DNA of 64,000 nucleotides from Candidatus Kerfeldbacteria bacterium (GTDB lineage: Bacteria; Patescibacteriota; Patescibacteriia; SBBC01; CAIJZX01). Of the stretch, positions 2,463 to 58,944 are shown one piece after another. The DNA lies in contig CAIJZX010000028.1 of assembly GCA_903825245.1 (NCBI GenBank), positions 1,106 to 65,105 of the forward strand. The letters run 5' to 3'. The notes under the pieces are model-generated. The model was given only the letters and a program-made list of their open reading frames with translations. It had not been told where the DNA came from and ran no database searches. The position numbers and the translations under genes were made by a program. Numbering within the stretch: the first letter of the stretch is position 1; each line of letters begins with the position of its first letter.

Positions 2463-4411
<1,949 letters not shown>

Positions 4412-4586: not shown

Positions 4587-5075
4587 ATGAACGACCTCCT
4601 GAGCATGATGAACAACTATTTAAACGTTCTTTGGTTTGTCCTGTTGATCGGTATGGTGCGCAACATAATTCAAGAACGTGAATTTGTGTTGAGTTGGTTT
4701 CACCACCCAAGAATTGGTAAACATACCGGAGTTAATAGTAAAGAACAGCAACACCGTCGAATGCGAAACCTGCTCTACACACTCGGCGGCGTCTTGATGG
4801 TGCTCATGGCGTGGGCGATGGTGATTACCCTGGCTCGATATTTCTATGGCGTGACAAACATCGCCTTTGCCGGGCATTCGCCGAGCAATATGTTTACGCC
4901 GTTCCGGAATAGTGTCGGTGACTTTGCTGTCCTGGGCGTGATCGGATTTATTATGGCCGGTACGTGTTTTACGCTTTCTGCCGGGGAGCGCTGGTTAGTG
5001 AATACCGGAAAATTATTAACCATCATCACCATTATCGGTTTAGCGTGGTTGTACGTTTTTGCGGCGCTGGGGTAG
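4587..5075 (+). CDS. hypothetical integral membrane protein
   Basis: 162-aa ORF with 4 hydrophobic helices, flanked by terminators. Confidence 0.5.
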   Translation: MNDLLSMMNNYLNVLWFVLLIGMVRNIIQEREFVLSWFHHPRIGKHTGVNSKEQQHRRMRNLLYTLGGVLMVLMAWAMVITLARYFYGVTNIAFAGHSPSNMFTPFRNSVGDFAVLGVIGFIMAGTCFTLSAGERWLVNTGKLLTIITIIGLAWLYVFAALG

Positions 5076-5089
5076 GAAAATAATTACAA

Positions 5090-5122
5090 CAGCGCCGGTT
5101 TCGAAACCGGCGCTGTTTTGTG
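5090..5122 (+). terminator. rho-independent terminator
   Basis: Stem CAGCGCCGGTT/AACCGGCGCTG with loop tcga, followed by TTTTGTG. Confidence 0.6.
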
Positions 5123-11399: not shown

Positions 11400-11487
11400 G
11401 GAGGGTTCGCATAGTGGCCTAGTGCATACGCTTGGAAAGCGTACATACCGCAAGGTATCGAGAGTTCGAATCTCTCACCCTCCGCCA
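11400..11487 (+). tRNA. tRNA-Ser (anticodon GGA), CCA encoded
   Basis: Acceptor stem GGAGGGT/ACCCTCC. Anticodon stem-loop TACGC-TTGGAAA-GCGTA gives anticodon GGA. Long variable arm (ATACC/GGTAT). T-arm GAGAG-TTCGAAT-CTCTC, discriminator G, then CCA. Confidence 0.85.
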
Positions 11488-12693: not shown

Positions 12694-13605
12694 ATGGAGC
12701 TTCCGGAAAACATCAAAACCCTCTACCGCCACTGGTCATATCACATCCAAGAGGAATTGTCTCCAATTGGTGATCGACCCTTGATTGATGAGTCTCTTTT
12801 TCGTGACATGTGTTCTTTTATTGATGAGAGAATGTTAATTTGGCAGAAAAAAGTTTCCCTCCAACCTGAACCCTATTCGACGGATCCTATTCTTGCTAAA
12901 TACCGCTTCTGCAATATCTTCCGTGAGCTGGATAAACAAACCATCTTTTTTCATACTCTCCTCAACCCATTGCGAGATGATTTTTCGCTGTGGCTGTTGA
13001 ATATGTTTTATTGCCGGATGGTGGCACGTCCAGAAACTATTGAATCCGTAGGGCTACTCTCTTTTGACACAATGAAGAATGAGGAAGTATTTGGACGCTT
13101 GATATCTTCGTCCCGGCCTCGATTCGGCACCCCGTATGTTTTCCCTATTAGCGTCATCCAGAAAAGCCCAACGCCGACCCGCGAACGATTTATTGCCGAA
13201 TACCTGCCGTCGGTGATGAAGGTGATAGCGGCAGAAATACAAACGTGGAAGAAAAAATCCGTATACGATGGCCTACAAAGGATCATTCCGCTGTTTGGTA
13301 AAAACCTCTACTTCCTCTGGACAGAAGTGCTGATAGATACGGCCTACCAGTTTCCAACATACATCAATCTCTTTGAGCGTTTTCCTATTGGTCCGGGATC
13401 AGCTCCAACATTAAAAAGACTGAACCCTGCTATAGATCTGTCCATTCTTGTACAGCAGCTGACTGATGTGCCCGTGAATACGGCTCTACAGTTTAATAGC
13501 TTGCCGCTTAAACTGTCTGCAGAAAACTGGGAAGGAGTCGGTTGTGAGTTTCGGAAATACACCAACCTAAGATCGGGTATTGGTCGGAAACGCCTGTACC
13601 GTTAG
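12694..13605 (+). CDS. hypothetical protein; possibly alpha-glutamyl/putrescinyl-thymine pyrophosphorylase (aGPT-Pplase)-like (unverified)
   Basis: 303-aa soluble ORF, divergently paired with the P-loop kinase. Contains ...DPILAKYRFCNIFRELDKQT.... The assignment comes from recalled family patterns and gene context only, not from a search. Confidence 0.3.
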   Translation: MELPENIKTLYRHWSYHIQEELSPIGDRPLIDESLFRDMCSFIDERMLIWQKKVSLQPEPYSTDPILAKYRFCNIFRELDKQTIFFHTLLNPLRDDFSLWLLNMFYCRMVARPETIESVGLLSFDTMKNEEVFGRLISSSRPRFGTPYVFPISVIQKSPTPTRERFIAEYLPSVMKVIAAEIQTWKKKSVYDGLQRIIPLFGKNLYFLWTEVLIDTAYQFPTYINLFERFPIGPGSAPTLKRLNPAIDLSILVQQLTDVPVNTALQFNSLPLKLSAENWEGVGCEFRKYTNLRSGIGRKRLYR

Positions 13606-14103: not shown

Positions 14104-14222
14104 AGACCCCGACCCACATGCCTCAAATCGCCCTCTAGAAAAATCGTCAGAAAACCCTTATAATGCTTGTGTGAGTGTGGTACCTAACCCATGTGTCCCG
14201 CCAATAGAACTAAGTATCGGAC
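14104..14222 (+). repeat. promoter-bearing repeat, copy A
   Basis: gaccccgacccacatgcctcaaatcgccctctagaaaaatcgtcagaaaacccttataatgcttgtgtgagtgtggtacctaac... is near-identical to copy B (15914-16032). It embeds TAGAAA-N17-TATAAT (14136-14164). Confidence 0.6.
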
Positions 14223-14308
14223 AAATCACTTTCCTATGAGCATGAAGCAACCCGGGTGCCTTGTCCCCATCGCATTATAAAACGAATAATGAAGCTTTCG
14301 GATATCAG

Positions 14309-14953
14309 ATGATTATGATGATTATCTTTTCCTACAACATTGACAAGGATATAGAGAATATTATTAATGGAACACATGCGATCAACAGTAAAAAACCAAC
14401 AAAGTTTCAGCTTTCATTTAGCGACAACTACGGTAACAACTTTGAACCAGAAAAAGTAAAAACATACATCCAACAACAAGATAAGATAAATAATTTTGAT
14501 GCGAACAAAGAAACTGTCACCATGGAAGCAAAGTGGAAAAATGCCGAGTCTATTTTTATCGAGCGTGCGGAAAAAATATTCAGTCTTACTTACCCATCAC
14601 CGATAACTATATATTTGACCCACAATGAGCGCTGTACTTACAACATTGAAAAAAACTATTTTTTTGTCAAAATCGGATCGGAATTTTCAAACAACGCAAT
14701 CATGCATGAACTGTTACATTTTTATACGTGGCAAGCCTTTGGCAAAAAACTATTGGAAGAAGGAGTTGCAAAGTCAACATATAATGACGTCAAAGAATCT
14801 CTGACGGAACTTCTCAATCTTGAGTTTTCTGACCTTATGAGTGGAAAACCAGATAGTGGATATCCGCAGCATCAGGGGATGAGACGAATAATCCACGATA
14901 CATGGCTACCGCAAAAAGATCTTTTTTCCATAGTTCAAAAATTGATCTCATAG
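14309..14953 (+). CDS. YgjP/DUF45-like HExxH zincin (putative metal-dependent hydrolase)
   Basis: AT-rich ORF. IMHELLHFYTW is an HExxH motif, preceded by THNERCTY; this resembles the YgjP/WLM/SprT-like layout. First in-frame ATG is at 14309; the ORF track used TTG at 14261. Confidence 0.4.
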   Translation: MIMMIIFSYNIDKDIENIINGTHAINSKKPTKFQLSFSDNYGNNFEPEKVKTYIQQQDKINNFDANKETVTMEAKWKNAESIFIERAEKIFSLTYPSPITIYLTHNERCTYNIEKNYFFVKIGSEFSNNAIMHELLHFYTWQAFGKKLLEEGVAKSTYNDVKESLTELLNLEFSDLMSGKPDSGYPQHQGMRRIIHDTWLPQKDLFSIVQKLIS

Positions 14954-15054
14954 GTATTGGCGATGTAGTTGCAGGCACAAAACAAATTTATAGAAATAAT
15001 CTTCGAGGGATCGTCTTCTACGTCTCAGCTACCGACCTACTCTCCTTAACATCC

Positions 15055-15148
15055 TCCCTAGGGCGAACCTCATAAAACCCTTATAATGCTTACGCGGGTA
15101 GGATACCTAACTCGAGTGTCTCGCCAAGAGAACTTAGTATCGGGTGAC
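15055..15148 (+). repeat. promoter-bearing repeat, copy C (diverged)
   Basis: cataaaacccttataatgcttacgcgggtaggatacctaactcgagtgtctcgccaagagaacttagtatcgg aligns with copies A and B (TATAAT at 15082-15087; conserved ACCTAAC...GCCAA...TTAGTATCG). Confidence 0.5.
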
Positions 15149-15205
15149 CCATATGCCTAGAATCAAAGTCAAAATGTGGGAGGCACAAATAGGCAGAATT
15201 TGACT

Positions 15206-15856
15206 ATGCAAGTAGCCCAACTCCACAAAAAATTCGATGCTCTACAGAAAACATTCGGCCACGGTGAACTAAATCCGATATACGGCGCTGGATGTGTACA
15301 ACATCCAAGGTTAATGTTGGTATTTATGAATCCAACTGGAAAGAATGTTGCATCAAATACCAATTGGTCTGGACTTCGTGCCCCGTGGCTCGGAACAAAA
15401 AACATCTGGAAACTTTTACACGAGATAAAAGTTGTGTCAGAAGAAAGTTTTTCTGCAACCCAGACAAAAAAGTCAAACGAGTGGACACCCTTGTTTTGTT
15501 CTAATTTGTATAAGGAAATTGATTCGCACGAGGTGTACATTACAAACTTAGCCAAATGTACTCAATTGGACGCACGACCATTATCAAATTTGGTCTTCCA
15601 AAAATATCTAGAGTTATTCAAACAGGAAACACTCCTGATCCATCCAAAGAAGATAATTACCTTTGGCAACCAAGTAAGTTCGATTATTGTTGGAGAAAAT
15701 ATCTCAGTGGGAAAGTATGCTGGTAATCGGCATGAAGATGTGAAAATTGGGAGCAAGATTTTCCCAGTTTATCCGACGTGGTATCCAGTTGGGCAGGGCA
15801 TGAGAAACCTCCCATTAGCTGCGAAACGAATTAAGAAAGTTCTCTCCACCAAATAA
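15206..15856 (+). CDS. uracil-DNA glycosylase superfamily protein (family-4-like layout, divergent motif A)
   Basis: EVYITNLAKCTQ matches UDG motif EVYITNxVKCRP. LLIHPKKIITFGNQV and KIFPVYPTWYP correspond to the family-4 UDG C-terminal motifs. Motif A is FMNPTG instead of GEAPG. Confidence 0.55.
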   Translation: MQVAQLHKKFDALQKTFGHGELNPIYGAGCVQHPRLMLVFMNPTGKNVASNTNWSGLRAPWLGTKNIWKLLHEIKVVSEESFSATQTKKSNEWTPLFCSNLYKEIDSHEVYITNLAKCTQLDARPLSNLVFQKYLELFKQETLLIHPKKIITFGNQVSSIIVGENISVGKYAGNRHEDVKIGSKIFPVYPTWYPVGQGMRNLPLAAKRIKKVLSTK

Positions 15857-15913
15857 TCTAAAAAGGGTACCGAACAATTGAGACATCCTTAAGAAGTGCC
15901 TCATTTTGGTTTT

Positions 15914-16032
15914 AGACCCCGACCCACATGCCTCAAATCGCCCCCTAGAAAAATCGTCAGAAAACCCTTATAATGCTTGTGTGAGTGTGGTACCTAACTC
16001 GAATGTCCCGCCAATAAAATTTAGTATCGCGC
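15914..16032 (+). repeat. promoter-bearing repeat, copy B
   Basis: Near-identical to copy A over ~95 bp (TAGAAA 15946-15951, TATAAT 15969-15974), then diverges. It is preceded by the tail motif gagacatccttaagaagtgcctca that is shared with copy D. Confidence 0.6.
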
Positions 16033-16058
16033 AACTCATCCAGGCAGTTACTTTATCC

Positions 16059-16742
16059 ATGAATCCAGAAAACACGAAAATCGAATCTCGCGAAATCCCG
16101 GAGATTGGTTTGCGTATCGAATTTTCACCACAACATGATGCCGAAATGGTTCGTGATAATCTCGATCCGGAAGAAATAGAATGGAATCGTACAATGGGAT
16201 ATCCATGCAGATTACCGAATAAAGTTGAAGAAGCTGTTTCGCGCGGAACCATTCCAACAGTTGAAGAAATTATTGAAGCGGTGACAGCCGAGTACCAGTC
16301 GGCGAGATACGAGCAACAATCTCTGGTCTTTACCGAGGCGTGGAATGAACAACGGGATGGATTCATAAAAAACCTATCGACCCTTGGTGTACCATTGCCA
16401 AACGAATATATCCTCCGATTGACCAGGTATGGTACCGGCGGAATGTACAAACTCCCGAATGAGATTGAGGTGATTGTGAACGACCCGATTACGACCGATT
16501 TCCACACACCCTTTCATGAGATGGTTCATTTGACCATCGAAGATCTGATTGTCGAGCACCATATTGGTCACTGGACCAAGGAACGATTGGTTGATCTTAT
16601 TCTCAATATGTTCGTTCCGGAAAAGAAATATCTCCAACAAGACCCGCCACACACAAAGCAAATCGATCAACTTTTCGAGCAGTATTTTCCTGACGTGAAG
16701 CGCATTATTGAAGAAATAACTACATTGGGGAGAGGTGCTTGA
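16059..16742 (+). CDS. YgjP/DUF45-like zincin (putative nucleotide pyrophosphatase/metal-dependent hydrolase)
   Basis: TRYGTGGMY...FHEMVHLTIEDLIVEHHIGHW matches the DUF45/YgjP pattern (RWGSC...HELxHLxExNHSxxFW). ATG at 16059; the upstream in-frame extension in the ORF track is a translation of repeat B. Confidence 0.5.
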   Translation: MNPENTKIESREIPEIGLRIEFSPQHDAEMVRDNLDPEEIEWNRTMGYPCRLPNKVEEAVSRGTIPTVEEIIEAVTAEYQSARYEQQSLVFTEAWNEQRDGFIKNLSTLGVPLPNEYILRLTRYGTGGMYKLPNEIEVIVNDPITTDFHTPFHEMVHLTIEDLIVEHHIGHWTKERLVDLILNMFVPEKKYLQQDPPHTKQIDQLFEQYFPDVKRIIEEITTLGRGA

Positions 16743-16757
16743 TTATACTACAGTTCT

Positions 16758-16823
16758 ATGGCCGAACTCCCACTACAACCCACCCTCGTCGATTTCCAAG
16801 CCCAACTTCTTAAATCTCGTTAA
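16758..16823 (+). pseudogene. relic 5' fragment of a mazG-like gene (22 codons then stop)
   Basis: ATG at 16758 encodes MAELPLQPTLVDFQAQLLKSR*. It is ~80% nt-identical over ~48 nt to the start of the intact mazG at 17202 (MPELSPQPTLADFQAH...). Confidence 0.5.
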
Positions 16824-16842
16824 TTCCATTATTTTCTTTGGT

Positions 16843-17193
16843 ATGAAAATCACTCGAAAAGAATCTCATATTGAGGATAAGCATGGAATTAAACTTTGGG
16901 TTTATCCTGTTGGTCGGAAAGAGGCTGGGGTGGTTTATGTTGAAGTTGAGGAAGGACACTTCCAAGAGTTTTTTGATAAGAAAAGTACTTTTATTTACTA
17001 CATTATTGAAGGCCAAGGAACTTTTTTTCTTGATGGCAAAGAAACTACCGTTAAAGAGGCGGATTTGGTCGTTATTCCGCCCATGACAAAAATTTACTAT
17101 TTTGGGAAAATGAGAATGACCCTAACGACGGTTCCCGCCTGGGAGCCGGAAAATGAAGTTCACGTCAGGTTCATTGAAAAACCAAGCAACTAA
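16843..17193 (+). CDS. cupin domain protein
   Basis: 116 aa. GVVYVEVEEGHFQEF...YIIEGQGTFFLDGKETTVKEADLVVIPP is a typical cupin two-motif beta-barrel. Confidence 0.55.
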   Translation: MKITRKESHIEDKHGIKLWVYPVGRKEAGVVYVEVEEGHFQEFFDKKSTFIYYIIEGQGTFFLDGKETTVKEADLVVIPPMTKIYYFGKMRMTLTTVPAWEPENEVHVRFIEKPSN

Positions 17194-17201
17194 TACTTTT
17201 T

Positions 17202-17534
17202 ATGCCCGAACTTTCGCCACAGCCAACCCTCGCCGATTTCCAAGCCCACATCAAGGCAGTTTGCACTGAACGCGGTTGGGACAAAAATTCCTATTCGGAA
17301 ATATTTTTATTGTTTACCGAAGAAGTTGGAGAACTCGCGAAATCAATTCGAAATGAAGCGAAATTACATGCCCAAGTCGATCCGAAGAAACGCTTTGAGC
17401 TGGAAGAAGAGTTCGCTGATGTTTTTAACTACCTTCTGGACTTAGCCAATTACTTTAACGTTGATCTCGAAGCGGCATATCGGAAGAAACATGAGCATAA
17501 TACAACAAGAGCTTGGAAAGCGAAAGGGGAATAA
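17202..17534 (+). CDS. MazG-like nucleotide pyrophosphohydrolase
   Basis: 110 aa. TLADFQAHIKAVCTERGWDKNS...EEVGELAKSIRNE...EEEFADVFNYLLDLANYF is the MazG/NTP-PPase EExxE helical-bundle pattern. Confidence 0.7.
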   Translation: MPELSPQPTLADFQAHIKAVCTERGWDKNSYSEIFLLFTEEVGELAKSIRNEAKLHAQVDPKKRFELEEEFADVFNYLLDLANYFNVDLEAAYRKKHEHNTTRAWKAKGE

Positions 17535-17540
17535 CACTCT

Positions 17541-18320
17541 ATGAGCACACAGCGTCGAACCGTCGTTTCCTACAATCGTTATGCAGGATCATGGGCCTCG
17601 TTGATGCGGTCCGGCGGTAATACTTCGCATCGGTACCTCGAGAAACCGGCGATGTTCCGTGCCTTGCCGAGCCTTCGCGGTAAAACGGTGTTGTGTGTCG
17701 GTTGCGGGACTGGCGAAGAGTGCGAATTATTGATGAAGCTCGGCGCTAAGCGCGTCGTTGGTACAGATATTTCCAAAAACCTCATTCGCGAAGCGAAACG
17801 CGCTTTTCCCGCGATCGAATTTTACACGAGGGATATGGAGCGACTGCGATTGCCGGCGCATGCATTCGACGTGGTCTACTCGAGTTTGACCATGCACTAC
17901 GTGCCGAGCTGGAAGCAAACCCTGGCCCAAGTCAAGAAGGTGCTGAAACCCGGCGGACAGTTTGTTTTTTCAACGCACCATCCAGTCCGTTGGGGCGCTG
18001 AGACGAAAGAAACGAAGCACCACAAGTCACACATTCTCGGGTATGAAAAAATAGACAAGGGCAAGGCAATTGTGTACGGCGATTATCTGAATGGCCACTG
18101 GATTCACGATCGTTGGTTCGGCGATTTCGATGTCACGTATTATCATCGGCCGTTATCGCTCTTGATACGCGATATTTTGGAAAGCGGACTTGAGCTTATC
18201 GATTTTCAAGAGCCAAAACCGCTAGCAACTGTCCGCCGCGAGAACCCGCAATACTGGAAGATCCATCAGAAAATCCCGCTCTTCATGATCTTCGTCTTGC
18301 GAAAAAAGGAGTCAAAATAA
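17541..18320 (+). CDS. class I SAM-dependent methyltransferase
   Basis: Motif I VLCVGCGTGEE, post-I acidic residue (VVGTDIS), and motif LKPGGQFVFS. Confidence 0.75.
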   Translation: MSTQRRTVVSYNRYAGSWASLMRSGGNTSHRYLEKPAMFRALPSLRGKTVLCVGCGTGEECELLMKLGAKRVVGTDISKNLIREAKRAFPAIEFYTRDMERLRLPAHAFDVVYSSLTMHYVPSWKQTLAQVKKVLKPGGQFVFSTHHPVRWGAETKETKHHKSHILGYEKIDKGKAIVYGDYLNGHWIHDRWFGDFDVTYYHRPLSLLIRDILESGLELIDFQEPKPLATVRRENPQYWKIHQKIPLFMIFVLRKKESK

Positions 18321-18387
18321 ATAGTCTTAATCGACTTCGCATTTTGTTCGGTTTTTGGTATACTGCAGAAATAACGCACAATAAATT

Positions 18388-18852
18388 ATGAAACTACGCA
18401 ACCACGCCGTCCCGGCGGTGTACCTCGTGATGCGAAAGGATAACAAGATTCTCTTTATGCGCCGGCAAGGCAGCGGTTTTTATGACGGTTGGTATTCGCT
18501 TCCGGCCGGCCACGTTGAAGCCGGTGAATTGCCAAAGGTGGGATTAGCGCGAGAAATGGAAGAAGAACTGGGGATAGGTATCGACGTGAACGCGCTCCGG
18601 CTCGTACATACGCTGTACCGGACGAAGAGCGATGAATCCGGCGATCGGGTGGACATGTTTTTTGACGTCCCGTCGTGGCAGGGCGAGCCAACGATTATGG
18701 AGCCGCACAAGTGTGATGATTTGCAGTGGTGCTCGATGCAAGAATTACCGGACAAAGTGATGCCGCACGTACGGCGAATATTGGAGGCCATCGATCGAGG
18801 CGAGACGTTCTCCGAGTTCGATTTGCCGACAATGTTGTCGTTTCCGAAATAA
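18388..18852 (+). CDS. Nudix hydrolase
   Basis: Nudix box GHVEAGELPKVGLAREMEEELGI. Confidence 0.8.
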   Translation: MKLRNHAVPAVYLVMRKDNKILFMRRQGSGFYDGWYSLPAGHVEAGELPKVGLAREMEEELGIGIDVNALRLVHTLYRTKSDESGDRVDMFFDVPSWQGEPTIMEPHKCDDLQWCSMQELPDKVMPHVRRILEAIDRGETFSEFDLPTMLSFPK

Positions 18853-18887
18853 TTCGCTTATTTAATTGTTTGTGGTAGGCTAGAACC

Positions 18888-19358
18888 ATGGCACACCTTC
18901 ACGACAAAATAGATTTCACGACCGAAGTCTTCATTGTTTTTCAGGGCAAAGTATTGTTGCGGAAGCACGATAAATACAAGATTTGGCTGAGTGTGGGTGG
19001 GCATATTGAACTTGATGAAGACCCGATACAGGCCGCACTGCGTGAAGTGAAAGAAGAAGTTGGGCTTGATGTTCAACTCTTTGGTCAACCGATCAGTGTC
19101 AGCAATGAAGGAGAAAACGGCTATCACGAGCTACTCCCGCCGATGTTTATGAACCGACACCATATTTCTGATACGCATGATCATATAACACTGACGTATT
19201 TTGCCAAAGCGACAACTAGTACTATTCGAAATCAAGAAGACGAGCATAGCGACGAGCTGAGATGGTTTACTGCGGAAGAACTTTCAGATTCGAAGTTTGG
19301 CATTCGGGATAGTGTTCAGAAATACGCATTGGCCGCCTTACAAACAATTCAAGGATAA
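18888..19358 (+). CDS. Nudix hydrolase
   Basis: Nudix box GGHIELDEDPIQAALREVKEEVGL. Confidence 0.75.
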   Translation: MAHLHDKIDFTTEVFIVFQGKVLLRKHDKYKIWLSVGGHIELDEDPIQAALREVKEEVGLDVQLFGQPISVSNEGENGYHELLPPMFMNRHHISDTHDHITLTYFAKATTSTIRNQEDEHSDELRWFTAEELSDSKFGIRDSVQKYALAALQTIQG

Positions 19359-19361
19359 ACC

Positions 19362-19910
19362 ATGTCAGAAGAAATGATCGACGTGCTCGATACACAGGGG
19401 GAAAAAACCGGACAAATATTGGAATTAAAAGAAGTCCATCGGCAAGGACTTTGGCATCGTACGGCGCATATTTGGGTTGTGACCTCAAAAGGTAATATAC
19501 TTTTTCAACAGCGCTCGCCGATCCTTGATGTCTACCCTAACTGTTGGGATATTTCCGCGTCCGGCCACATTCGAACTGGTCAAACGAGCCTTGAAGGGGC
19601 TATAGCAGAAACACAAGAAGAAATCGGATTATCCTTAAAACCCAACTCGTTAGAATTTCTGACTACACTGCAGCATGAAAGCGAACATAATCAAGGCACA
19701 AACATTAATAGAGAATTTCAGGATGTGTATTTGGTAACACAAGACGTGTCATTGAATGAATTAACAATACTCAATACCGAGGTCAGCAATCTGCAATTTA
19801 TACATTGGTCGAAATTACGTCGACTAGTTGACAATCATGACCAGGGGTTTGCCCCACGTGGTCAAGAATACCAACTACTATTCTCAATATTGCAGCAACG
19901 TTATCCATAA
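19362..19910 (+). CDS. Nudix hydrolase (IDI-like clade)
   Basis: Nudix box SGHIRTGQTSLEGAIAETQEEIGL. The N-terminal LWHRTAHIWV...LFQQRS...YPNCWD resembles the isopentenyl-diphosphate-isomerase-like Nudix subfamily. Confidence 0.7.
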   Translation: MSEEMIDVLDTQGEKTGQILELKEVHRQGLWHRTAHIWVVTSKGNILFQQRSPILDVYPNCWDISASGHIRTGQTSLEGAIAETQEEIGLSLKPNSLEFLTTLQHESEHNQGTNINREFQDVYLVTQDVSLNELTILNTEVSNLQFIHWSKLRRLVDNHDQGFAPRGQEYQLLFSILQQRYP

Positions 19911-23250: not shown

Positions 23251-23324
23251 GGCGCTGAAAAGACTGACCGTTGACGAGAATAGCATTTTTCCTTATACTC
23301 CTCCTGTTCTTGAACACTGTTGAT

Positions 23325-23396
23325 TCCCAGGTAGCTCAATGGTAGAGCAATCGGCTGTTAACCGATTGGTTCTCGGTTCGAATCCGAGCCTGGGAG
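23325..23396 (+). tRNA. tRNA-Asn (anticodon GTT), copy 1
   Basis: Acceptor TCCCAGG/CCTGGGA, D-arm GCTC-AATGGTA-GAGC, anticodon arm ATCGG-CTGTTAA-CCGAT (GTT), T-arm CTCGG-TTCGAAT-CCGAG. No encoded CCA. Confidence 0.85.
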
Positions 23397-23586
23397 GTTA
23401 GAGGAGAAGTTGCCCGGCGACCGACCCCTATCCAAACCGCCCCACTGCCTTAGCCAAATTCTCTCGTCCCTCACATCGTCGAATTTTCCAAAAGCGTCAA
23501 AGATGAGGAGACTAGGCACGATATTCGAACCAGTCCATTTCCTGTAGAATAGTAGAATCTTTGAAAACATTTTGAGCGCTATTGAT

Positions 23587-23661
23587 TCCCAGGTAGCTCA
23601 GCGGTAGAGCAATCGGCTGTTAACCGATTGGTCGTCGGTTCGAATCCGACCCTGGGAGCCA
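23587..23661 (+). tRNA. tRNA-Asn (anticodon GTT), copy 2, CCA encoded
   Basis: Same acceptor and anticodon arms as copy 1 with diverged D-loop (agcgg) and T-stem (GTCGG/CCGAC). It shares the 12-nt leader ttgattcccagg. Confidence 0.85.
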
Positions 23662-23709
23662 AGAGCGTTTGAGGTGAGTTTACACGGAAAATCACAGGTT
23701 CGAATCCTG

Positions 23710-23737: not shown

Positions 23738-23759
23738 ACAAAAGTGATACAATTGAACC

Positions 23760-24338
23760 ATGACACTCATTAAGTACCAGGAGTTCCTACTTCACTTTCC
23801 GACATCAGAACAAAGGATCTTCCATCTCGGTACAATTACGGAAAGATATTTTTACATGTCTGAAGATCAGGTTGAGGAGTTTCAAAAAGAGCTTGCCGCA
23901 GTATTTGACCCATCAAGAAGATTCACTAAACCCGCTGATAGGCTGTACTCGTTCTGTTTTGGTTTCTATTCCCTGATAAGGGTTACTCTAGAAGCAACGT
24001 ACAAACTGAATCAATACTTTGACAAGAAGTATAGTAACCAGGAATTACAGCAATACCGTGAAGATTGGTTTACACGGATTGACGCAATAAGGCAGATAGC
24101 AAATGATATCGTCAAACATCCCCTCGATGATGAGACAAGAAAGAAAGATTACTTTTTTGAACCAGGAGGCTCAGATAGCATGGGGTCTGTTACCATCTAC
24201 AAATGGTGGATCGACCCCCAAAAAGAGATGGATTTCTCCAAAGAGATAAAACCAGCAATAGATTTGCAAACCGTCTTTGATTATCTAGAAGGGCTTGCCG
24301 AAAAGTACTCAGCCGTTCTGGGTGCAGTGGTAAAATAA
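23760..24338 (+). CDS. hypothetical protein (AT-rich island)
   Basis: 192-aa ORF in DNA markedly AT-richer than the core genes, immediately downstream of the tRNA-Asn pair. Confidence 0.4.
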   Translation: MTLIKYQEFLLHFPTSEQRIFHLGTITERYFYMSEDQVEEFQKELAAVFDPSRRFTKPADRLYSFCFGFYSLIRVTLEATYKLNQYFDKKYSNQELQQYREDWFTRIDAIRQIANDIVKHPLDDETRKKDYFFEPGGSDSMGSVTIYKWWIDPQKEMDFSKEIKPAIDLQTVFDYLEGLAEKYSAVLGAVVK

Positions 24339-24396
24339 GTTCCAAGGTACAAAATAGAACCGAAGTCTCTTTCAAGTATTACCTACATAAGCCAGT

Positions 24397-25305
24397 ATGA
24401 AAATAGTAAAACCTATAAAGGCAGACATTGTTTGGCATACTTGGCTTCAAAGCGAGTGGTTTAGAATTGAGCAAGATAATCACGAAATTTCTCATCTAAT
24501 ACCCCTTGTTCTCAATCCAAACTTTGGAGATGAGAACGAAAACAAAATAAGGTTAGAAACCCTAAGATTACGCAGGGGTCTTATAATTGATAAAATGCCT
24601 GATGGGACTAATTGGTTTGAAGTAGAAATTGAAGAAAAAGATATAAATAACTTATTTATTATCCCTTCTCCCGATTGGTTTATGGATACGAATGGGACAT
24701 TCAAATTATCTGCGCTTGGAGAGAACCTAAAGCCTGGTCGTGGTTCACGAATTCATGGTATGGAAAATATTGATCACTTCCAAGAAGTTCAGCGAAAGGT
24801 TAAGTATCTTTCTGAACATTCAGAAATCGAATCTCAGGAGTTGCCCATTATTATTGCTACTCAAAACTCCGGACCATACACAATTATTGATGGCACTCAT
24901 CGAGTGGGTGCCTGGCTTCAAACCAATAAGGCTTTTCACTGGAAGATGTACTTGGCCGTGAACTCGGCCTTTGATAATTACGTTTTTAATGCTGATGGTA
25001 ATCAAGTCCACAATACAATCACTGAGCTACAGAAAAATCCTACAATTTCTGTCATTCTTGTAACAATTATCGACTTTGTTGCCTTCCTCCCCACATATCG
25101 AAAAAGCTATGAGGAGCCACACACCGAGACCATCACGACCTATTTCCTGAGTGGAGCATCCAGTCTTGTCGCCCTATTCGCACTCGCTGAGTATTCAGTC
25201 GCTACATCGCTTTACGTATCTAGTCTAGTAATAACAAACGCCGTAGTTGTAGTGATTCTAGTGATACGAAGAAAGAGCGTTAAACAATCAACGGGCATCA
25301 TTTAG
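24397..25305 (+). CDS. ParB/Srx-like nuclease-domain protein fused to a C-terminal 3-TM membrane half-module
   Basis: N-terminal soluble domain with ATQNSGPYTIIDGTHRVGAW (ParB-like DGxHR). The C-terminal ~80 aa (ISVILVTIIDFVAFLPTYRKSYEEP...VILVIRRKS) are paralogous to the second half of the membrane protein at 45673..46260. Confidence 0.45.
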   Translation: MKIVKPIKADIVWHTWLQSEWFRIEQDNHEISHLIPLVLNPNFGDENENKIRLETLRLRRGLIIDKMPDGTNWFEVEIEEKDINNLFIIPSPDWFMDTNGTFKLSALGENLKPGRGSRIHGMENIDHFQEVQRKVKYLSEHSEIESQELPIIIATQNSGPYTIIDGTHRVGAWLQTNKAFHWKMYLAVNSAFDNYVFNADGNQVHNTITELQKNPTISVILVTIIDFVAFLPTYRKSYEEPHTETITTYFLSGASSLVALFALAEYSVATSLYVSSLVITNAVVVVILVIRRKSVKQSTGII

Positions 25306-25307
25306 CG

Positions 25308-25420
25308 ATCCACGACCCACCCGCTTCAACTCCTCTCTTGAAAAATCGTCCGAAAAACCCTTAAAAGTCTATTTTGAGACAGTCCTGAAACAGCCTTAAG
25401 AAGTGTCTCAAGTTTCTCAA
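25308..25420 (+). repeat. promoter-bearing repeat, copy D (permuted core/tail order)
   Basis: gatccacgacccacccgcttcaactcctctcttgaaaaatcgtccgaaaaacccttaaaagtct aligns with copies A and B (~75% identity). It embeds TTGAAA-N17-TTAAAA (25338-25366) and is followed by the tail motif gagaca...ccttaagaagtgtctca. Confidence 0.5.
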
Positions 25421-45676: not shown

Positions 45677-46260
45677 GCTTGAAACTCTTATTCGGCATAA
45701 TCGCGACTATCCTAGCAATAGTTTGTTTTCTGCCATATCTGAGAGATATTGTTGCCAAGAAAACTACGCCGCATATTTACTCGTGGCTTGTTTGGAGTAT
45801 CCTCCAAACAGTTGGGGTAATCGCAATTTTTCAAGGTGGCGGACAGTTCGGATCTTTAGGTTTGGCAGTTGGTTTACTTTTCTGTATCAGCATATTCTTA
45901 TTATCGTTTAAATACGGAACTAAAAACATTACAAAATTTGATACCCTCTGCCTGATTGGCTCAATGATCGCCATAGTGATCTGGTTAATACAGCGTGACC
46001 ACACGCTTTCCGTTATTCTGATCACAATAATAGACTTCGTTGCCTTTCTTCCGACCTATCGCAAAGGGTATGCCGAGCCGCGAAGTGAGACTTCCACCAC
46101 GTACCTCCTGAGCGCAATTTCAAATGTTTTTGCATTGTTAGCACTAGCTCAGTATTCCTTGACTACTTCTTTGTATATAGTCAGCCTGGTGGCATCGAAC
46201 AGTGGCATAGTATTGATTCTTCTTATTCGCCGAAAAACTTTACGTGTGCACCATGCGTAA
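45673..46260 (+). CDS. 6-TM membrane protein built from two 3-TM repeats (PQ-loop/SemiSWEET-like topology), embedded in the ABC operon
   Basis: Internal repeat FLPYLRDIVAKKTTPHIYS / FLPTYRKGYAEPRSETSTTY after TM1 and TM4. The second half is paralogous to the C-terminus of 24397..25305. Start overlaps the upstream stop (ATGA). Confidence 0.45.
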   Translation: MSLKLLFGIIATILAIVCFLPYLRDIVAKKTTPHIYSWLVWSILQTVGVIAIFQGGGQFGSLGLAVGLLFCISIFLLSFKYGTKNITKFDTLCLIGSMIAIVIWLIQRDHTLSVILITIIDFVAFLPTYRKGYAEPRSETSTTYLLSAISNVFALLALAQYSLTTSLYIVSLVASNSGIVLILLIRRKTLRVHHA

Positions 46261-51338: not shown

Positions 51339-51376
51339 CCCCACCCATTCCTTCGGGAATCGGTGGGGCTTTTTTC
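51339..51376 (+). terminator. rho-independent terminator (module ...CATTCCTTCGGGAATCGGTGGGG-T-run)
   Basis: 13-bp stem CCCCACCCATTCC/GGAATCGGTGGGG (one mismatch) with loop TTCG, followed by TTTTTTCTG. Confidence 0.55.
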
Positions 51377-51395
51377 TGTTTGTTGCGCGCGAATA

Positions 51396-51471: not shown

Positions 51472-52032
51472 ATGCCCGAACCGAAACAAGGAACCAGTAG
51501 TATCGGCCTACCGATGCATTATTCGGCCGGCGCAGTTATTCAGGATGATCACGGCAGGTATCTGCTGATCGATCGGGTCAAGCCGCCGTTCGGGTGGGCT
51601 GGACCGGCCGGTCATGTCGACGAAGGCGAAGACGCGCTGACGGCGGTCCAGCGCGAAGTGCTCGAGGAAACCGGCCTGACGGTCGTCGAGTCCGAACTGC
51701 TCTTCGCTGAGGAAATCGTCGGCAACTACTGCCGCCGCGGTACCACGATTCATCATTGGTCGCTCTACCGCTGTCGCGTGACGGGCGAACTCAAGACGAA
51801 GCCCGACGAGGTCAAGAGCTTCCGCTGGATTTCGGCGGAGGAACTGACGACGCTCCAGCTCGAGCCGGTCTGGATGTACTGGTTCGACAAACTCGGCATC
51901 TGCAATGTCGACCAGTGTGAAGGGGAGAACATCCTTCGCTGCGCGGAGTGTTCAGCTCCAATCGTCGACGGTTTCTGCCCACGATGCGGATTCGCACCGT
52001 CGGCACAGGATATGTACATCGGTATCAAGTAA
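51472..52032 (+). CDS. Nudix hydrolase with C-terminal zinc-ribbon
   Basis: RBS GGAGG. Nudix box GHVDEGEDALTAVQREVLEETGL. C-terminal CEGENILRCAEC...CPRCGF. Confidence 0.75.
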   Translation: MPEPKQGTSSIGLPMHYSAGAVIQDDHGRYLLIDRVKPPFGWAGPAGHVDEGEDALTAVQREVLEETGLTVVESELLFAEEIVGNYCRRGTTIHHWSLYRCRVTGELKTKPDEVKSFRWISAEELTTLQLEPVWMYWFDKLGICNVDQCEGENILRCAECSAPIVDGFCPRCGFAPSAQDMYIGIK

Positions 52033-52036
52033 CACG

Positions 52037-52075
52037 CTCCACTCATTCCTCCGGGAATCGGTGGGGTTTTTCTTT
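52037..52075 (+). terminator. rho-independent terminator (same module as 51339)
   Basis: ...CATTCCTCCGGGAATCGGTGGGG followed by TTTTTCTTTT. Confidence 0.5.
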
Positions 52076-52253
52076 TCTCCCATCTTGACACGCTTCATTT
52101 TTTCTGGTAAGAACATGCTGGCTACAAAGCGTAGCTCACTCAGTCGTGCTGATAGTCAGCGGCGCTAACCTGCTGACGGATCGATTGAGGACAATCGTGA
52201 TGCGAGTACCATCGCGGTGACAGCACCTTTCAACTACTTCGACGGGGGAACAC

Positions 52254-55090: not shown

Positions 55091-57172
55091 TTAGGCTTTT
55101 CCTCCTGCCATTGCCGGTCGCATAGGCTTGATTGGCATCGGTGCTTCTTCAATAAGCGGGGCAGTAAATTGAGAGTTATATAGTGAAGCGTAGAAACCTT
55201 TGGCGGCTAGCAATTCGTCGTGCTTGCCTTGTTCGACGATGTTGCCGTCTTTCATGACGAGGATCAGGTCGGCGTTCTTGATCGTGGACAGGCGGTGGGC
55301 GATGACGAAGCTCGTCTTATCGTGCATCAGGCGGTCCATCGCTTGTTGGATCAGGATTTCCGTGCGCGTGTCGACCGAGCTCGTGGCTTCGTCGAGGATG
55401 AGCATCGGCGTCTTGATCAACATCGCGCGGGCGATCGTCAGCAACTGCTTTTCACCTTGCGAGATGTTGTTCGCTTCTTCGTCGAGGACCATGTCGTAGC
55501 CCTTCGGGAGGGAATGGACGAAGTGGTCGACGTGAGCGGCTTTGGCCGCTTCGATGACCTCGGCTTCCGTGGCTTCCGGGTGGCCGTAGGCGATGTTATC
55601 GCGGATGGTGCCGTTGAAGAGCCAGGTGTCTTGGAGAACCATGCCGAAGAGTTTGCGGACATCAGCGCGAGCCATGGTGCGCGTATCGACGCCATCGACT
55701 TTGATCGAACCGCTGGTCACGTCGTAGAAGCGCATCAACAGGTTGACCATGGTGGTCTTGCCGGCGCCGGTCGGACCGACGATGGCCACGCGTTGTCCGG
55801 GTTCGATCTTGGCCGTAAAGCCGTGGATGATTTCCTTATCAGGGGAGTAGCCGAAGTGGACGTTATCGAATTCGACTTCACCTTTGACATTGGAAATGTC
55901 TTTCGCGCCGACGGCATCTTTCGACTCTTCTTCCTCAGCCAGGAATTCGAATACGCGTTCCGCGGCGGCGGCTGTCGATTGCATGACGTTGGCCACGTTG
56001 GCGGTCTGGACGACCGGTTGGTTGAACTGCTGGACGTAGGAAATGAAGGCCTGAATGTCGCCGATGTTGATCTTGCCGTTGATGGCGAGCCAACCGCCGA
56101 CAATCGCGACGCCGACGTAACCGATGTTACCGATCACGGTCATCATCGGGAACATCAGGCCGGAGAGGAATTGCGATTTCCAAGCCGTGCCGAAGAGTTC
56201 CTTGTTGAAACCGGTGAAGGTTTTGATCGAGCGTTCCTGGCCGTTGAAGACTTTCATGACTGTGTGGCCGCCGAACATTTCTTCGATGTGGCCATTCAAG
56301 TGGCCGAGGGTTTCTTGCTGTTTCACGAAGAAGGCTTGCGATTTCTTGACCACCAAGGCGAGCAGGCCGAAGCTCATCGGGAGAGTAACGAGTGCGACCA
56401 GCGTCATTTGCCAACTGATGGAGAGCATCATGCCGAGAATGCCGAGTATCATCGTGACGGAGGTGATGATCTGCGTCATCGATTGGTTGAGCGTCTGGCC
56501 GACGGTGTCGATATCGTTCGTGACGCGGCTTAAGACTTCGCCGTAGGTCGTCTTATCGAAGTACCGGAGCGGCATGCGGCCGATTTTTTCCGCCAGGTCT
56601 TTGCGGAACTGGTAGGTGATTTTCTGCGTGACGTTGGTCATGATCAACCCTTGGATGAAGTTGAAGACCATGCTAATCACATACAGAATGAGCAACTCGA
56701 TAGCGATCTTACGCAAGATGTCGTAGTGGAAAATCGGACGGACAGAGAGATCGAGCGAGCTCAGCGTCTTCTGAATGCTCGACGGAATATTCTTTGTGGC
56801 CGCGGCCGGAAGTCTGGCTAAGAATTGCGCGCCGGTGGTGCCGGCCGGGATTTTTGTACCTTTTGGTAACTGCGCGGTAAATTGATTGTAGGCCGTGCGG
56901 TTGATGAAATCGGTGACGATGTGATTCGTCATATTCCCGAGAATCTTCGGGCTGGCGATGGCGAAGCCGGTGCTGGCAATCGTGAAGACAAAGACGAGGA
57001 TGATGTGCCACTTATACGGCGACATGTATTTCACGAGCTGTTTGATTGTGCCCTTGAAGTTCTTCGCTTTCTGCCCCGGCATCATCATCATCGGACCGCC
57101 GCGACCCATCGGACCCATCGGTCGCGGTGGCGTTACTGGCGCTTTTTCTTTCATTGGTGGTTGGTTGCTCAT
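55091..57172 (-). CDS. ABC exporter permease/ATPase fusion (type I exporter), subunit B of a heterodimeric pair
   Basis: 6-TM domain plus NBD with Walker A GPTGAGKTT, signature ISQGEKQLLTIARAM, Walker B ILDEATSSVD. Proline/Met/Gly-rich N- and C-terminal tails (PMGPMGRGGPMMMMPG). Confidence 0.85.
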   Translation of the reverse strand: MSNQPPMKEKAPVTPPRPMGPMGRGGPMMMMPGQKAKNFKGTIKQLVKYMSPYKWHIILVFVFTIASTGFAIASPKILGNMTNHIVTDFINRTAYNQFTAQLPKGTKIPAGTTGAQFLARLPAAATKNIPSSIQKTLSSLDLSVRPIFHYDILRKIAIELLILYVISMVFNFIQGLIMTNVTQKITYQFRKDLAEKIGRMPLRYFDKTTYGEVLSRVTNDIDTVGQTLNQSMTQIITSVTMILGILGMMLSISWQMTLVALVTLPMSFGLLALVVKKSQAFFVKQQETLGHLNGHIEEMFGGHTVMKVFNGQERSIKTFTGFNKELFGTAWKSQFLSGLMFPMMTVIGNIGYVGVAIVGGWLAINGKINIGDIQAFISYVQQFNQPVVQTANVANVMQSTAAAAERVFEFLAEEEESKDAVGAKDISNVKGEVEFDNVHFGYSPDKEIIHGFTAKIEPGQRVAIVGPTGAGKTTMVNLLMRFYDVTSGSIKVDGVDTRTMARADVRKLFGMVLQDTWLFNGTIRDNIAYGHPEATEAEVIEAAKAAHVDHFVHSLPKGYDMVLDEEANNISQGEKQLLTIARAMLIKTPMLILDEATSSVDTRTEILIQQAMDRLMHDKTSFVIAHRLSTIKNADLILVMKDGNIVEQGKHDELLAAKGFYASLYNSQFTAPLIEEAPMPIKPMRPAMAGGKA

Positions 57173-58944
57173 ACAGCGGCTCCTTTCATGGCTAGCTCCG
57201 GAACATTGGTGGGTATATCCAATTCAGTTTCTGAAAGTTGTGATAAGGCGATTTCGCGATAGACTTGGCAGTTCTTCAGCAGTTCTTGGTGCGTGCCTTG
57301 CCCGACGATGCGGCCTTCATCGAGAACGATGATGTTATCGGCATTTCGGATTGTGCCGATGCGTTGGGCAACAATGAGAACAGTCTTGCCCTTCGTTTCG
57401 GTTTCTAAGGCTTTGCGGAGATTCGCGTCAGTAGTGAAGTCGAGCGCCGAGAAGCTATCATCGAAAATGTAGATTTCCGGTTTGCGAGCAACGGCGCGGG
57501 CGATAGACAGGCGTTGCTTCTGACCGCCAGAGACATTGGTGCCACCTTGGGCGATTGGGGCGTTATATGCGCCGTCGAGTTTTTCCACGAAGTCTTTTGC
57601 TTGAGCGATTTCGGTCGCATGTTTGACCGCCGCCTCATCCGCGTTTGGTTCTCCGTACTTCACGTTCGATTCAACCGTGCCGGAGAAGAGGACGCCCTTT
57701 TGTGGAACGTAACCAATCTTGTGATAGACATCTTCCATGCGCATCTGCTTGATATCGACGCCGTCGATTTTCACGGTGCCGGACGTCGGGTCGTAGAAGC
57801 GGGGAATGAGATTAATCAAGGTTGACTTACCGCTGCCGGTGCTGCCGACGAAGGCGGTCGTTTGTCCGGGAATCGCGGTAAAGGAAACATCATGGAGGAC
57901 AGGCGTATCCGCACCGGTGTACGAGAAGGTGACGTGGTCGAATTCGACTTTCCCGCCTTTCTTCTCCGTGACGTCAACCGGATCCTTCGGATCAACGATC
58001 GTCGGATCTGTGTCGAGGACTTCGGCCAGACGTTGCATCGACACCCAAGCGCGTGGCACCATGATGAAGACCATAGTAATCATCAAGAAGGCGAAGATGG
58101 CTTGCATGGCGTATTGCATGAAGGCGATCATGCCGCCGATTTGCAAACTGCCGGCGTCGATTTTATGGGCGCCGAACCAGATGACGGCGAGCATCGTCAG
58201 GTTGACGATGAAGAACATCATCGGTTGCATAATGACCATGACGCGGTTGACGAACAAGTTGATCTTCGTCAGATCGTTGTTGGCCACGTCGAATTTCTGC
58301 TCTTCATACGGTACGCGATTGAAAGCGCGGATGACGCGCAGGCCGGTCAGGATTTCCCGGGTGACGAGGTTGAGGCGGTCGACAAGTTTCTGGAGTTTTT
58401 GGAACCTCGGAATAACAATGATGAAGACCGTCACAATCATGGTAATAACTGCGCCGATAGCTAAGCCCATAATCCAGGTCATCGATGGAGCGTTACGATA
58501 GGCGAGGAAAATTGCCCAGATACCCATGATCGGCGCCATCAAGGCCATACGCAGGACCATCACCATCACGGTCTGAATTTGGGTGATGTCGTTGGTCGTG
58601 CGAGTAATCAGCGACGAGGTCGAGAATTTATTAAATTCAGCAAGTGAAAAACTTTCCACCTTGGTAAAAGCACGCGCCCGAATATCGCGGGCATAACCGG
58701 CGGCAATACGCGAGGCGAGCCAGCTGGTGATAATACTGGCGGCGCCTCCACCGAGGGAGACGAGTAACATGAGTAGTCCGGTCGTCCAAACAATGTGGAG
58801 ATCGGCACCGACAATGCCTTTGTTGATGATGGTGGCCATGTAGTCGGGGAGCGACAACGAAGCCGCCACGCTACCGGTTACCGATCCGATGAGGATGATG
58901 AGGTACCAGGTGTATGGCTTAAATAATGCGAGAAGTTTCTTCAT
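57169..58944 (-). CDS. ABC exporter permease/ATPase fusion, subunit A
   Basis: 6-TM domain plus NBD with Walker A GSTGSGKST, signature VSGGQKQRLSIARAV, Walker B IFDDSFSALD. Its stop overlaps the downstream start (ATGA). Confidence 0.85.
   Translation of the reverse strand: MKKLLALFKPYTWYLIILIGSVTGSVAASLSLPDYMATIINKGIVGADLHIVWTTGLLMLLVSLGGGAASIITSWLASRIAAGYARDIRARAFTKVESFSLAEFNKFSTSSLITRTTNDITQIQTVMVMVLRMALMAPIMGIWAIFLAYRNAPSMTWIMGLAIGAVITMIVTVFIIVIPRFQKLQKLVDRLNLVTREILTGLRVIRAFNRVPYEEQKFDVANNDLTKINLFVNRVMVIMQPMMFFIVNLTMLAVIWFGAHKIDAGSLQIGGMIAFMQYAMQAIFAFLMITMVFIMVPRAWVSMQRLAEVLDTDPTIVDPKDPVDVTEKKGGKVEFDHVTFSYTGADTPVLHDVSFTAIPGQTTAFVGSTGSGKSTLINLIPRFYDPTSGTVKIDGVDIKQMRMEDVYHKIGYVPQKGVLFSGTVESNVKYGEPNADEAAVKHATEIAQAKDFVEKLDGAYNAPIAQGGTNVSGGQKQRLSIARAVARKPEIYIFDDSFSALDFTTDANLRKALETETKGKTVLIVAQRIGTIRNADNIIVLDEGRIVGQGTHQELLKNCQVYREIALSQLSETELDIPTNVPELAMKGAAV

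Follow-up and report, generated by a model that had tools for sequence, protein, structure and literature searches.

A stranded mazG start beside a cupin gene: probable scar of homology-anchored recombination at the edge of an accessory-gene array

Why does one stretch of DNA carry the start of the same gene twice, with an unrelated gene between the two copies? The question is raised by the 64,000-nt stretch analysed here (the window), in which a short open reading frame (ORF) begins like mazG, a cupin gene follows, and an intact mazG comes directly after the cupin gene (Table 1). A preliminary description, made from the letters alone, had regarded the arrangement as the footprint of an insertion, or of a recombinational cassette swap, at a gene start. 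We consider that the short ORF is a relic of mazG, and that homology-anchored recombination has probably left this scar where a variable array of accessory genes ends. By its nearest homologues only, the window would be placed in the Patescibacteria/Saccharibacteria group.

The two starts, which had been claimed to be copies of each other, were found by repeat search as direct repeats of 51 nt, lying 444 nt apart from start to start. When both segments were aligned, 42 of the 51 positions were identical (82%), and there was no indel at this divergence of 18%. The pair obtained E = 1e-6 in a self-BLAST of the whole window, where it was among only about 12 repeats. Its edges are sharp in the pairwise alignment: similarity begins 4 nt 5' of the ATG and ends at GCCCA, codon 16. 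The relic ORF has 21 codons followed by TAA and encodes the peptide MAELPLQPTLVDFQAQLLKSR. Compared in frame with the MazG N-terminus MPELSPQPTLADFQAH, 11 of 16 residues are identical. The residues L4, P8, L10, D12 and Q14, which are invariant among close MazG homologues, are all retained, and the substitutions include A11V, at a nearly invariant position, and H16Q. The relic is truly derived from the 5' end of mazG, and in annotation its 21-codon ORF is best marked as a mazG remnant and not as a gene.

Two contigs from different samples and different assemblers (L001 and L002) span both copies with 100% identity, and therefore the structure is not an assembly artefact or chimera. Chance similarity or a chimera is already refuted by the E value, the shared frame, the family-invariant residues and the identity of the two independent assemblies, and we give this explanation practically no weight.

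As a separate observation, the short contigs of five metagenome assemblies (L001-L005) end at window positions 16702, 16706, 17116, 17150 and 17150, that is, just 5' of the relic or within the 3' end of the cupin gene, two of them at the identical base. These breaks may reflect strain variants which differ in content upstream of mazG.

Table 1. Features at the mazG relic and in its neighbourhood (window coordinates).
Feature	Position	Strand	Basis or remark
Three-cassette array, each cassette 3' of the ~125-nt repeat D1	14104..16038	+	Low-GC variable block ending at mazG
Upstream cassette gene, HEMVH motif	16062..16742	+	ATG 16062, not 16071; stop 15 nt 5' of relic ATG
TATACT, -10-like box, 8 nt 5' of relic ATG	16744..16749	+	Read from sequence
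Repeat copy 1, stranded mazG start (-4 to codon 16)	16754..16804	+	42/51 vs copy 2
Relic ORF	16758..16823	+	First 16 codons mazG-derived, last 5 from cargo leader
Cargo leader, junction with relic at 16804/16805	16805..16842	+	Alignment
RNA hairpin (predicted)	16820..16892	+	Base holds relic stop 16821-16823; upper stem pairs cupin AUG 16843-16845
Cupin gene, 116 aa, cargo between repeats	16843..17193	+	Pfam Cupin_3, Cupin_2, AraC_binding
Repeat copy 2, start of intact mazG	17198..17248	+	Repeat search, alignment
Intact mazG, 110 aa, RS21-C6-like NTP (nucleoside triphosphate) pyrophosphohydrolase	17202..17534	+	PF03819

The copies do bracket the cupin gene, as had been described. Between them lie 393 nt (16805-17197), which are accounted for by the leader (38 nt), the cupin gene and a further 4 nt. 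The cupin product matched Cupin_3 with 25.2 bits (cut-off 23.5), and Cupin_2 below its cut-off. We found 62 homologues with 50-99% identity, some shorter matches being lower; full-length homologues reached at most 76%, and shorter matches went higher. All homologues with a taxon name belonged to Patescibacteria. On the contigs L010-L013 the homologues lie in same-strand arrays of unrelated small enzyme genes. A mazG was never present beside a cupin homologue, either in these four contexts or in the locus searches. The leader of the window cupin showed no significant similarity with the leaders of the cupin homologues, and homology with the leader of the L010 cupin was rejected because 3581 of 5000 shuffles scored as well.

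The intact mazG is complete. Its product matched PF03819 with 25 bits (cut-off 22), was covered 100% in alignments against more than 500 homologues, and also matched PHROG pyrophosphatase families. The closest homologues, on L006-L009 and L174, showed 84-89% amino acid identity and about 70-77% nucleotide identity. No closer relatives were obtained, since the genome scan gave at most 63% and the metagenome scan at most 70% amino acid identity. In L007, L008, L009 and L174 mazG is present without cupin and without relic, and dnaG follows downstream in all four. A Nudix gene is located between mazG and dnaG in L007 and L008, mazG-Nudix linkage was seen in three loci overall, and rpoD follows dnaG in the relatives wherever the contig extends that far. 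In the window, mazG is followed by a methyltransferase gene, three Nudix genes, dnaG and rpoD. In L174 a tRNA-Ser lies at a distance of about 100 nt from mazG, and dnaG comes immediately after mazG.

The gene 5' of mazG is different in each relative and is never a cupin, so that mazG is the first conserved gene beside a hypervariable region. As the relatives have mazG without cupin and the cupin homologues are never beside mazG, the cupin-mazG adjacency is derived, and it is lineage-specific. The first proposal, an insertion or cassette swap at the gene start, thus stands and is broadly right as to the kind of event. It had also been suggested to look in relatives for the upstream gene next to mazG with no cupin between; mazG without cupin was indeed found, in the four loci named above, but the upstream gene was never beside it. 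The arrangement that had been named as pointing to decay of a paralogue, two full mazG copies flanking the cupin, was seen neither in 88 loci from the protein search nor in 81 further metagenome loci, none of which carried two full copies of mazG.

The same architecture occurs at mazG in other places. In the sister genome L006, a 35-codon ORF whose first 29 codons come from mazG lies 736 nt 5' of an intact mazG, and the two bracket an unrelated gene of 174 aa. In nine species of Nanosynbacter, a 59-nt copy of mazG (-27 to +32) lies about 800 nt 5' of mazG, and relic and mazG bracket a gene for a small membrane protein with its own promoter. The repeat therefore covers different extents, as it runs from -4 to +47 in the window, from 0 to +89 in L006 and from -27 to +32 in Nanosynbacter. 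The right edges differ (codon 16, 29 and 11), and the left edge is always at or just 5' of the gene start. The relics of the window and of L006 match at 35 of 48 positions, no closer than any other pair, so orthology between them was rejected. The 80 genome loci had no relics outside the nine of Nanosynbacter, and in 81 metagenome loci of other bacteria a mazG relic was never found.

The Nanosynbacter relic carries ATG to ACG and Pro to Leu changes, and the ATG is lost in eight of the nine species. Special conservation of this relic was rejected, as the nine species share 98-100% identity over the entire cassette. In one Nanosynbacter species, L068, positions 4958-5014 show a 5' end of the relic type (ACG, CTA) fused to the mazG body, and the cargo is absent. 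L068 is probably the product of a deletion between the two repeats, by which the cargo was lost and mazG was deprived of its start codon. The fusion means that the repeats are recombinogenic.

In Nanosynbacter the island with mazG sits inside a split lepA. The lepA gene (EF4) is divided into ORFs of 276 aa (N-terminal) and 320 aa (C-terminal) in L073 (3372-6933), and equivalents are present in L053-L080. The island is variable, measures 0.8-5.6 kb, and holds mazG together with differing cassettes in Nanosynbacter and oral Saccharibacteria. It also contains the stranded last 48 nt of lepA-N and a fragment of lepA-C, which lie between different cassettes according to species. We found no description of a split lepA with such an island in the literature searched.

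Whether the two copies of a pair diverged before or after they were joined can be read best in L006. The L006 relic differs from the L006 mazG at 13 nt, which are distributed 3/0/10 over first, second and third codon positions, with 8 synonymous and 3 non-synonymous codons, as in pairs of functional orthologues. With all changes random, this synonymous bias has P = 5e-5; with 80% of the changes placed on a neutral relic, P is about 0.007. It means that the L006 copies diverged as working genes and are alleles of two lineages that were recently joined. Read as a simple insertion footprint, the preliminary description is thus probably wrong, and a target-site duplication is improbable too, because the copies were probably not identical at the time of the event. 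For the window, an origin from two lineages is suggested by analogy with L006 and by base composition. The GC content at third codon positions (GC3) is 0.42 in mazG and 0.38 in the cupin gene, and 0.61 in the methyltransferase gene and 0.58 in dnaG. In relatives which have both genes, the GC3 of mazG is 1-8 points below that of dnaG. The GC3 of the window mazG, which is that of the low-GC block and unlike that of dnaG, points in the same direction as the analogy.

We propose the following origin. The element would be the stranded 5' end of a mazG allele (4 nt, ATG and 16 codons) with its own -10 box still attached, placed at the right-hand edge of an array of small genes where this abuts the conserved block of mazG, Nudix, dnaG and rpoD. 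DNA from a related but diverged lineage would have been joined in two steps: a homologous exchange in or beyond mazG, acting as anchor, and an illegitimate join at mazG codon 16/17. The process would be homology-facilitated illegitimate recombination or, equivalently, insertion-duplication of the Campbell type through the short 5' homology of mazG, and its product would be the order of relic, 38-nt leader, cupin gene and complete mazG. The left edge would fall at the gene start because donor and recipient would share mazG and not its upstream sequence, and the right edge would vary because an illegitimate join, or the random end of a fragment, would give it. Natural transformation may be the likeliest route of entry, since Saccharibacteria are known to be naturally competent (PMC10633639); in Patescibacteria, genes for competence are prevalent (PMC12455944). 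As for direction, the cupin gene may have been inserted into a resident mazG, or an upstream block ending in a mazG stub may have been joined to an older cupin-mazG pair. The two are topologically equivalent.

Several points weigh against this origin. No close relative in an empty or donor state was found, the best mazG having about 77% nucleotide identity. The window relic differs from the intact mazG at 8 nt, in 3 synonymous and 4 non-synonymous codons, which is too short for an allele test, and the argument from synonymous bias is carried over to the window from L006 by analogy. Low GC extends over the whole block from 14.0 to 17.5 kb, so the scar may already have existed when it was imported. 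A mosaic breakpoint inside mazG was not detected, identity between lineages being flat at 70-80% along the gene. Without a parental sequence no microhomology can be read at the junction. Grouping by the -25 to -1 regions was not relied on: both relics matched L174 best and both intact copies matched each other best, with weak scores (9, 6, 9).

The copies could also have arisen in place, if a staggered break or local tandem duplication copied positions -4 to +47, a fragment with the cupin gene was captured between them, and the left copy then decayed neutrally to 82% identity. Direct repeats around exactly one gene are what such a duplicative insertion would leave. It is also compatible with the window relic, which has as many non-synonymous as synonymous changes and A11V at a near-invariant site, and with the destructive changes in the Nanosynbacter relic. 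We regard it as quite unlikely, because the strong synonymous bias in L006 (P about 0.007) is not expected from it, the 51 nt have stayed free of indels, the left edge is at the gene start in three of three cases, which a random staggered cut does not predict, and neither transposase nor terminal inverted repeats were found. Decay of a paralogue, in which two complete mazG genes once flanked the cupin and the upstream one was later deleted to 16 codons, would also account for the synonymous bias. This history is very unlikely: the loci searched contain no pair of full mazG genes, cupin homologues are not beside mazG, and the same decay would be needed three times, each with a different cargo.

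The repeated use of the mazG start in three lineages, next to a same-strand array spaced by a conserved 125-nt repeat (D1), could instead suggest a site-specific cassette system, with the mazG 5' end as attachment site (as attI/attC or att) and the cupin gene as mobile cassette. This reading is largely refuted, and we hold it for highly improbable. The repeats end at different codons, the cargo ends share no motif, and the 393-nt cargo has no mobility gene. The relic region and D1 form no hairpin (z from -0.6 to +1.8). An attC hairpin was rejected, since on both strands shuffled sequences folded as well as the relic region and the three D1 copies, and an integron cassette was rejected as well, since no integrase, transposase or other recombinase domain was found in 20 neighbouring proteins scanned between 2.7 and 25.3 kb. 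The target-site duplication of a transposon or insertion sequence does not fit a repeat of 51 nt with 82% identity, with neither inverted repeats at the insert ends nor a transposase found. An integrase-mediated gene-end element does not fit an insert that encodes only a cupin, with repeat extents that vary by lineage.

The proposed origin resembles some known systems. In Kirchberger et al. (2017, PMC5361080), orphan gene ends at type VI secretion system (T6SS) and Rhs loci are attributed to displacement of effectors, which is likened to homology-facilitated illegitimate recombination. As in the arrays of T6SS effector-immunity, Rhs and contact-dependent inhibition genes, incoming DNA would be anchored by a conserved flanking gene and joined illegitimately at its other end, older material would be shifted and truncated gene ends left in a growing same-strand array without an integrase, and the arrays vary between close relatives. 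There, a toxin gene provides the anchor by its conserved 5' part, and 3' ends together with immunity genes kept under selection form the relics; here the anchor is the housekeeping-type mazG, a 5' end with its putative promoter forms the relic, the cargo is an unrelated enzyme gene, and the lineage is Patescibacteria-like. Homology-facilitated illegitimate recombination is described for bacteria with natural transformation (de Vries & Wackernagel 2002; Prudhomme et al. 2002; Meier & Wackernagel 2003, as cited in PMC5361080), and there is a case in E. coli (PMC3240628). It shares with our proposal a one-sided homologous anchor with an illegitimate join, for which short linear DNA suffices, but the experiments usually delete recipient DNA by the anchor, whereas here a short stretch of the anchor is duplicated.

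A Campbell-type insertion-duplication would likewise leave the homology as direct repeats around the insert after a single crossover, and the repeats could later delete the insert; L068 resembles such a product. It differs in that a circular donor with a mazG 5' fragment is needed and none is known; moreover, RecA-dependent exchange would have had only a very short homology to act on (51 nt, 82% identity). Integron cassettes are similar as small, mostly promoterless genes on one strand, added by a resident promoter, with the older ones pushed along; here no IntI, attC hairpin or conserved core sites were found, and the junctions vary. Integrative elements that insert into gene ends, such as tRNA 3' ends and some protein genes, carry a replacement end, encode an integrase, and have att repeats that are nearly identical and of fixed extent. 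They share with the present locus a duplicated gene end flanking the insert while the target gene stays intact, and differ from it because the insert here is 393 nt without a mobility gene and the repeats are only 82% identical.

Does the relic have a role at present? The inserted gene had been said to take over the old initiation context of mazG. Literally this is not the case, because the cupin gene has its own ATG, in another frame than the relic and 20 nt past the relic stop; indirectly it may hold, through the -10 box and an upstream ORF (uORF). The TATACT box is probably the native leaderless-type promoter of mazG, kept with the relic, judging from its position. A relic that is functional now, which is compatible with the proposed origin, would give a leaderless-type promoter and a 5'-terminal AUG; termination of the uORF in the base of a hairpin would open this hairpin, and re-initiation would follow 20 nt downstream at the cupin AUG. 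The relic has the parts for this: its putative promoter, ATG and reading frame are intact, its stop is close to the cupin AUG, and a start-masking structure is predicted. The hairpin has -20.8 kcal/mol and z = -3.05, none of 200 shuffles was as stable, and it was also found as an inverted repeat. It holds the relic stop in its base and buries the cupin AUG, and a comparable hairpin is absent from the cupin homologues in L010, L011 and L013.

The surroundings agree with this role in part. Of the 54 genes in the whole window (ORFs with an ATG start and a length of 120 aa or more), 7 have a strong -10 box that ends 4-11 nt 5' of the ATG, as have 50 of 1500 random ATGs (3.3%); this geometry, to which TATACT-N8-ATG belongs, is thus enriched about 4-fold. 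Shine-Dalgarno motifs are nearly absent from the window genes, and the ORFs are chained with gaps of 15, 19, 8 and 6 nt. On the other side, a single genome gives no view of conservation or covariation, the peptide has no sign of purifying selection, the L006 relic has no comparable structure, the Nanosynbacter relic has mostly lost its ATG, an upstream D1 promoter (15946-15974) could transcribe the whole operon, and the significance of the hairpin is overstated since several features were inspected at this spot. Coupling of the cupin gene to the relic as uORF is possible from these features, but we lean against a functional relic and mention it tentatively. Apart from the relic, the -10 boxes near ATGs and the scarce Shine-Dalgarno motifs across the window suggest that leaderless transcripts are frequent in it.

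A wider reading is that in these Patescibacteria-like genomes, where Shine-Dalgarno motifs are few and several promoters are of the leaderless type, incoming genes may dock and be expressed at a conserved gene start, for example that of mazG, with no integrase. Homology-anchored recombination driven by transformation would put the cargo just inside the gene, the stranded start would survive by supplying promoter and 5'-terminal AUG, and translation would be relayed by termination and re-initiation through a start-masking hairpin, as a functional analogue of the integron Pc/attI that comes from ordinary recombination. With all its parts taken together we find this reading unlikely.

The event itself is of an ordinary kind and a tidy example of it, as the shuffling of accessory genes is known. 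What the scar offers is a dated molecular record of the entry of small accessory genes into streamlined genomes of the Patescibacteria type. This entry takes place without mobile-element machinery where a variable array meets a conserved block, and conserved genes act as recombination anchors. The signature was found at mazG in three lineages and at both halves of the split lepA in oral Nanosynbacter. Because of this recurrence, gene-end relics could map and orient past acquisitions in metagenome-assembled genomes. Through the event, the intact mazG was also separated from the -10 box, which remained beside the relic. If the relic works as a leaderless entry uORF as well, it would explain which insertions survive in genomes that are largely without Shine-Dalgarno-led initiation. 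Two aspects merit further attention: the signature recurs at mazG and lepA in Patescibacteria-type genomes, and a promoter and uORF may have been captured.

The array which ends at mazG is a block of low GC (0.35-0.45 between 14.0 and 17.5 kb, about 0.52 in the flanks) with all genes on one strand. The D1 copies are at 14104-14228, 15027-15151 and 15914-16038, with a partial copy at 25310-25376, and two of the three copies have a promoter-like site TAGAAA-17-TATAAT. The genes led by D1 encode an unknown protein of 230 aa, a protein of the UDG superfamily and the protein with the HEMVH motif. The last, directly upstream of the relic, had been labelled ygjP-like; the label is not borne out, as the gene has the HEMVH motif and no Pfam or PHROG match. 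Its single homologue, with 43% identity, is paired with an HTH_3 gene in an unrelated context, in what may be an ImmA/IrrE-like arrangement.

D1 was also present in the unrelated contig L010, in four copies (1475-1607, 2409-2500, 3177-3280 and 4283-4397), one of them directly before a cupin homologue of 82% identity. Its conserved blocks are CGACCCACATGCCTCAAA, ACCCTTATAAT and TAACyCGAGTGnCCCGCCA, and it precedes consecutive unrelated accessory genes. D1 is intergenic, unstructured and promoter-like, is not like attC, and has no Rfam match. In cassette arrays it may serve as a portable promoter or as a module of homology. Four single matches of the D1 motif in viral contigs were taken as chance, since none was D1-like by nhmmer. 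A search of Rfam over 10-24 kb gave tRNAs only, among which is a tRNA-Ser at 11400-11487. The segment 11480-11524, comprising the tRNA-Ser 3' end and its flank, is colinear with the D1 3' end and then the D1 5' end, at a score that was reached by none of 20,000 shuffles. It has the appearance of an 'empty' junction, in which the flanking sequences of the cassette genes meet without interruption.

A phage origin of the block at 12.6-17.6 kb was rejected, as it had no DNA match in 50,697 phage records; against PHROGs, only mazG and an HMUDK-like protein matched. Genes for nucleotide handling are clustered at 12694-13605, 15176-15856 and 17202-19910, without phage DNA similarity, and comprise a 5-hmdU DNA kinase helical-domain protein (PF18723), the UDG-superfamily protein, MazG, the methyltransferase and three Nudix hydrolases.

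Some further repeats were observed in the window. Exactly one Nudix gene (51473-52032) lies between two similar intrinsic terminators (51341-51380 and 52039-52076), which share 87.5% identity over 40 nt; it is another single gene between direct repeats in the window. Two tandem tRNA-Asn(GTT) genes at 23310-23403 and 23572-23665 are 88% identical over 94 nt; 3' of them are two low-GC genes without family match (low-GC patch 23750-25250) and then the partial D1 copy, so this patch may be a second cassette patch. A perfect palindrome of 30 nt (5088-5117) lies just past the ORF 4587-5075. Distant direct repeats with 69% identity were found at 25046-25225 and 46007-46182 (180 nt), and at 55684-55786 and 57753-57855 (103 nt). 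The 103-nt pair is located within the adjacent minus-strand ORFs 55091-57172 and 57169-58944 and may mark their paralogy.

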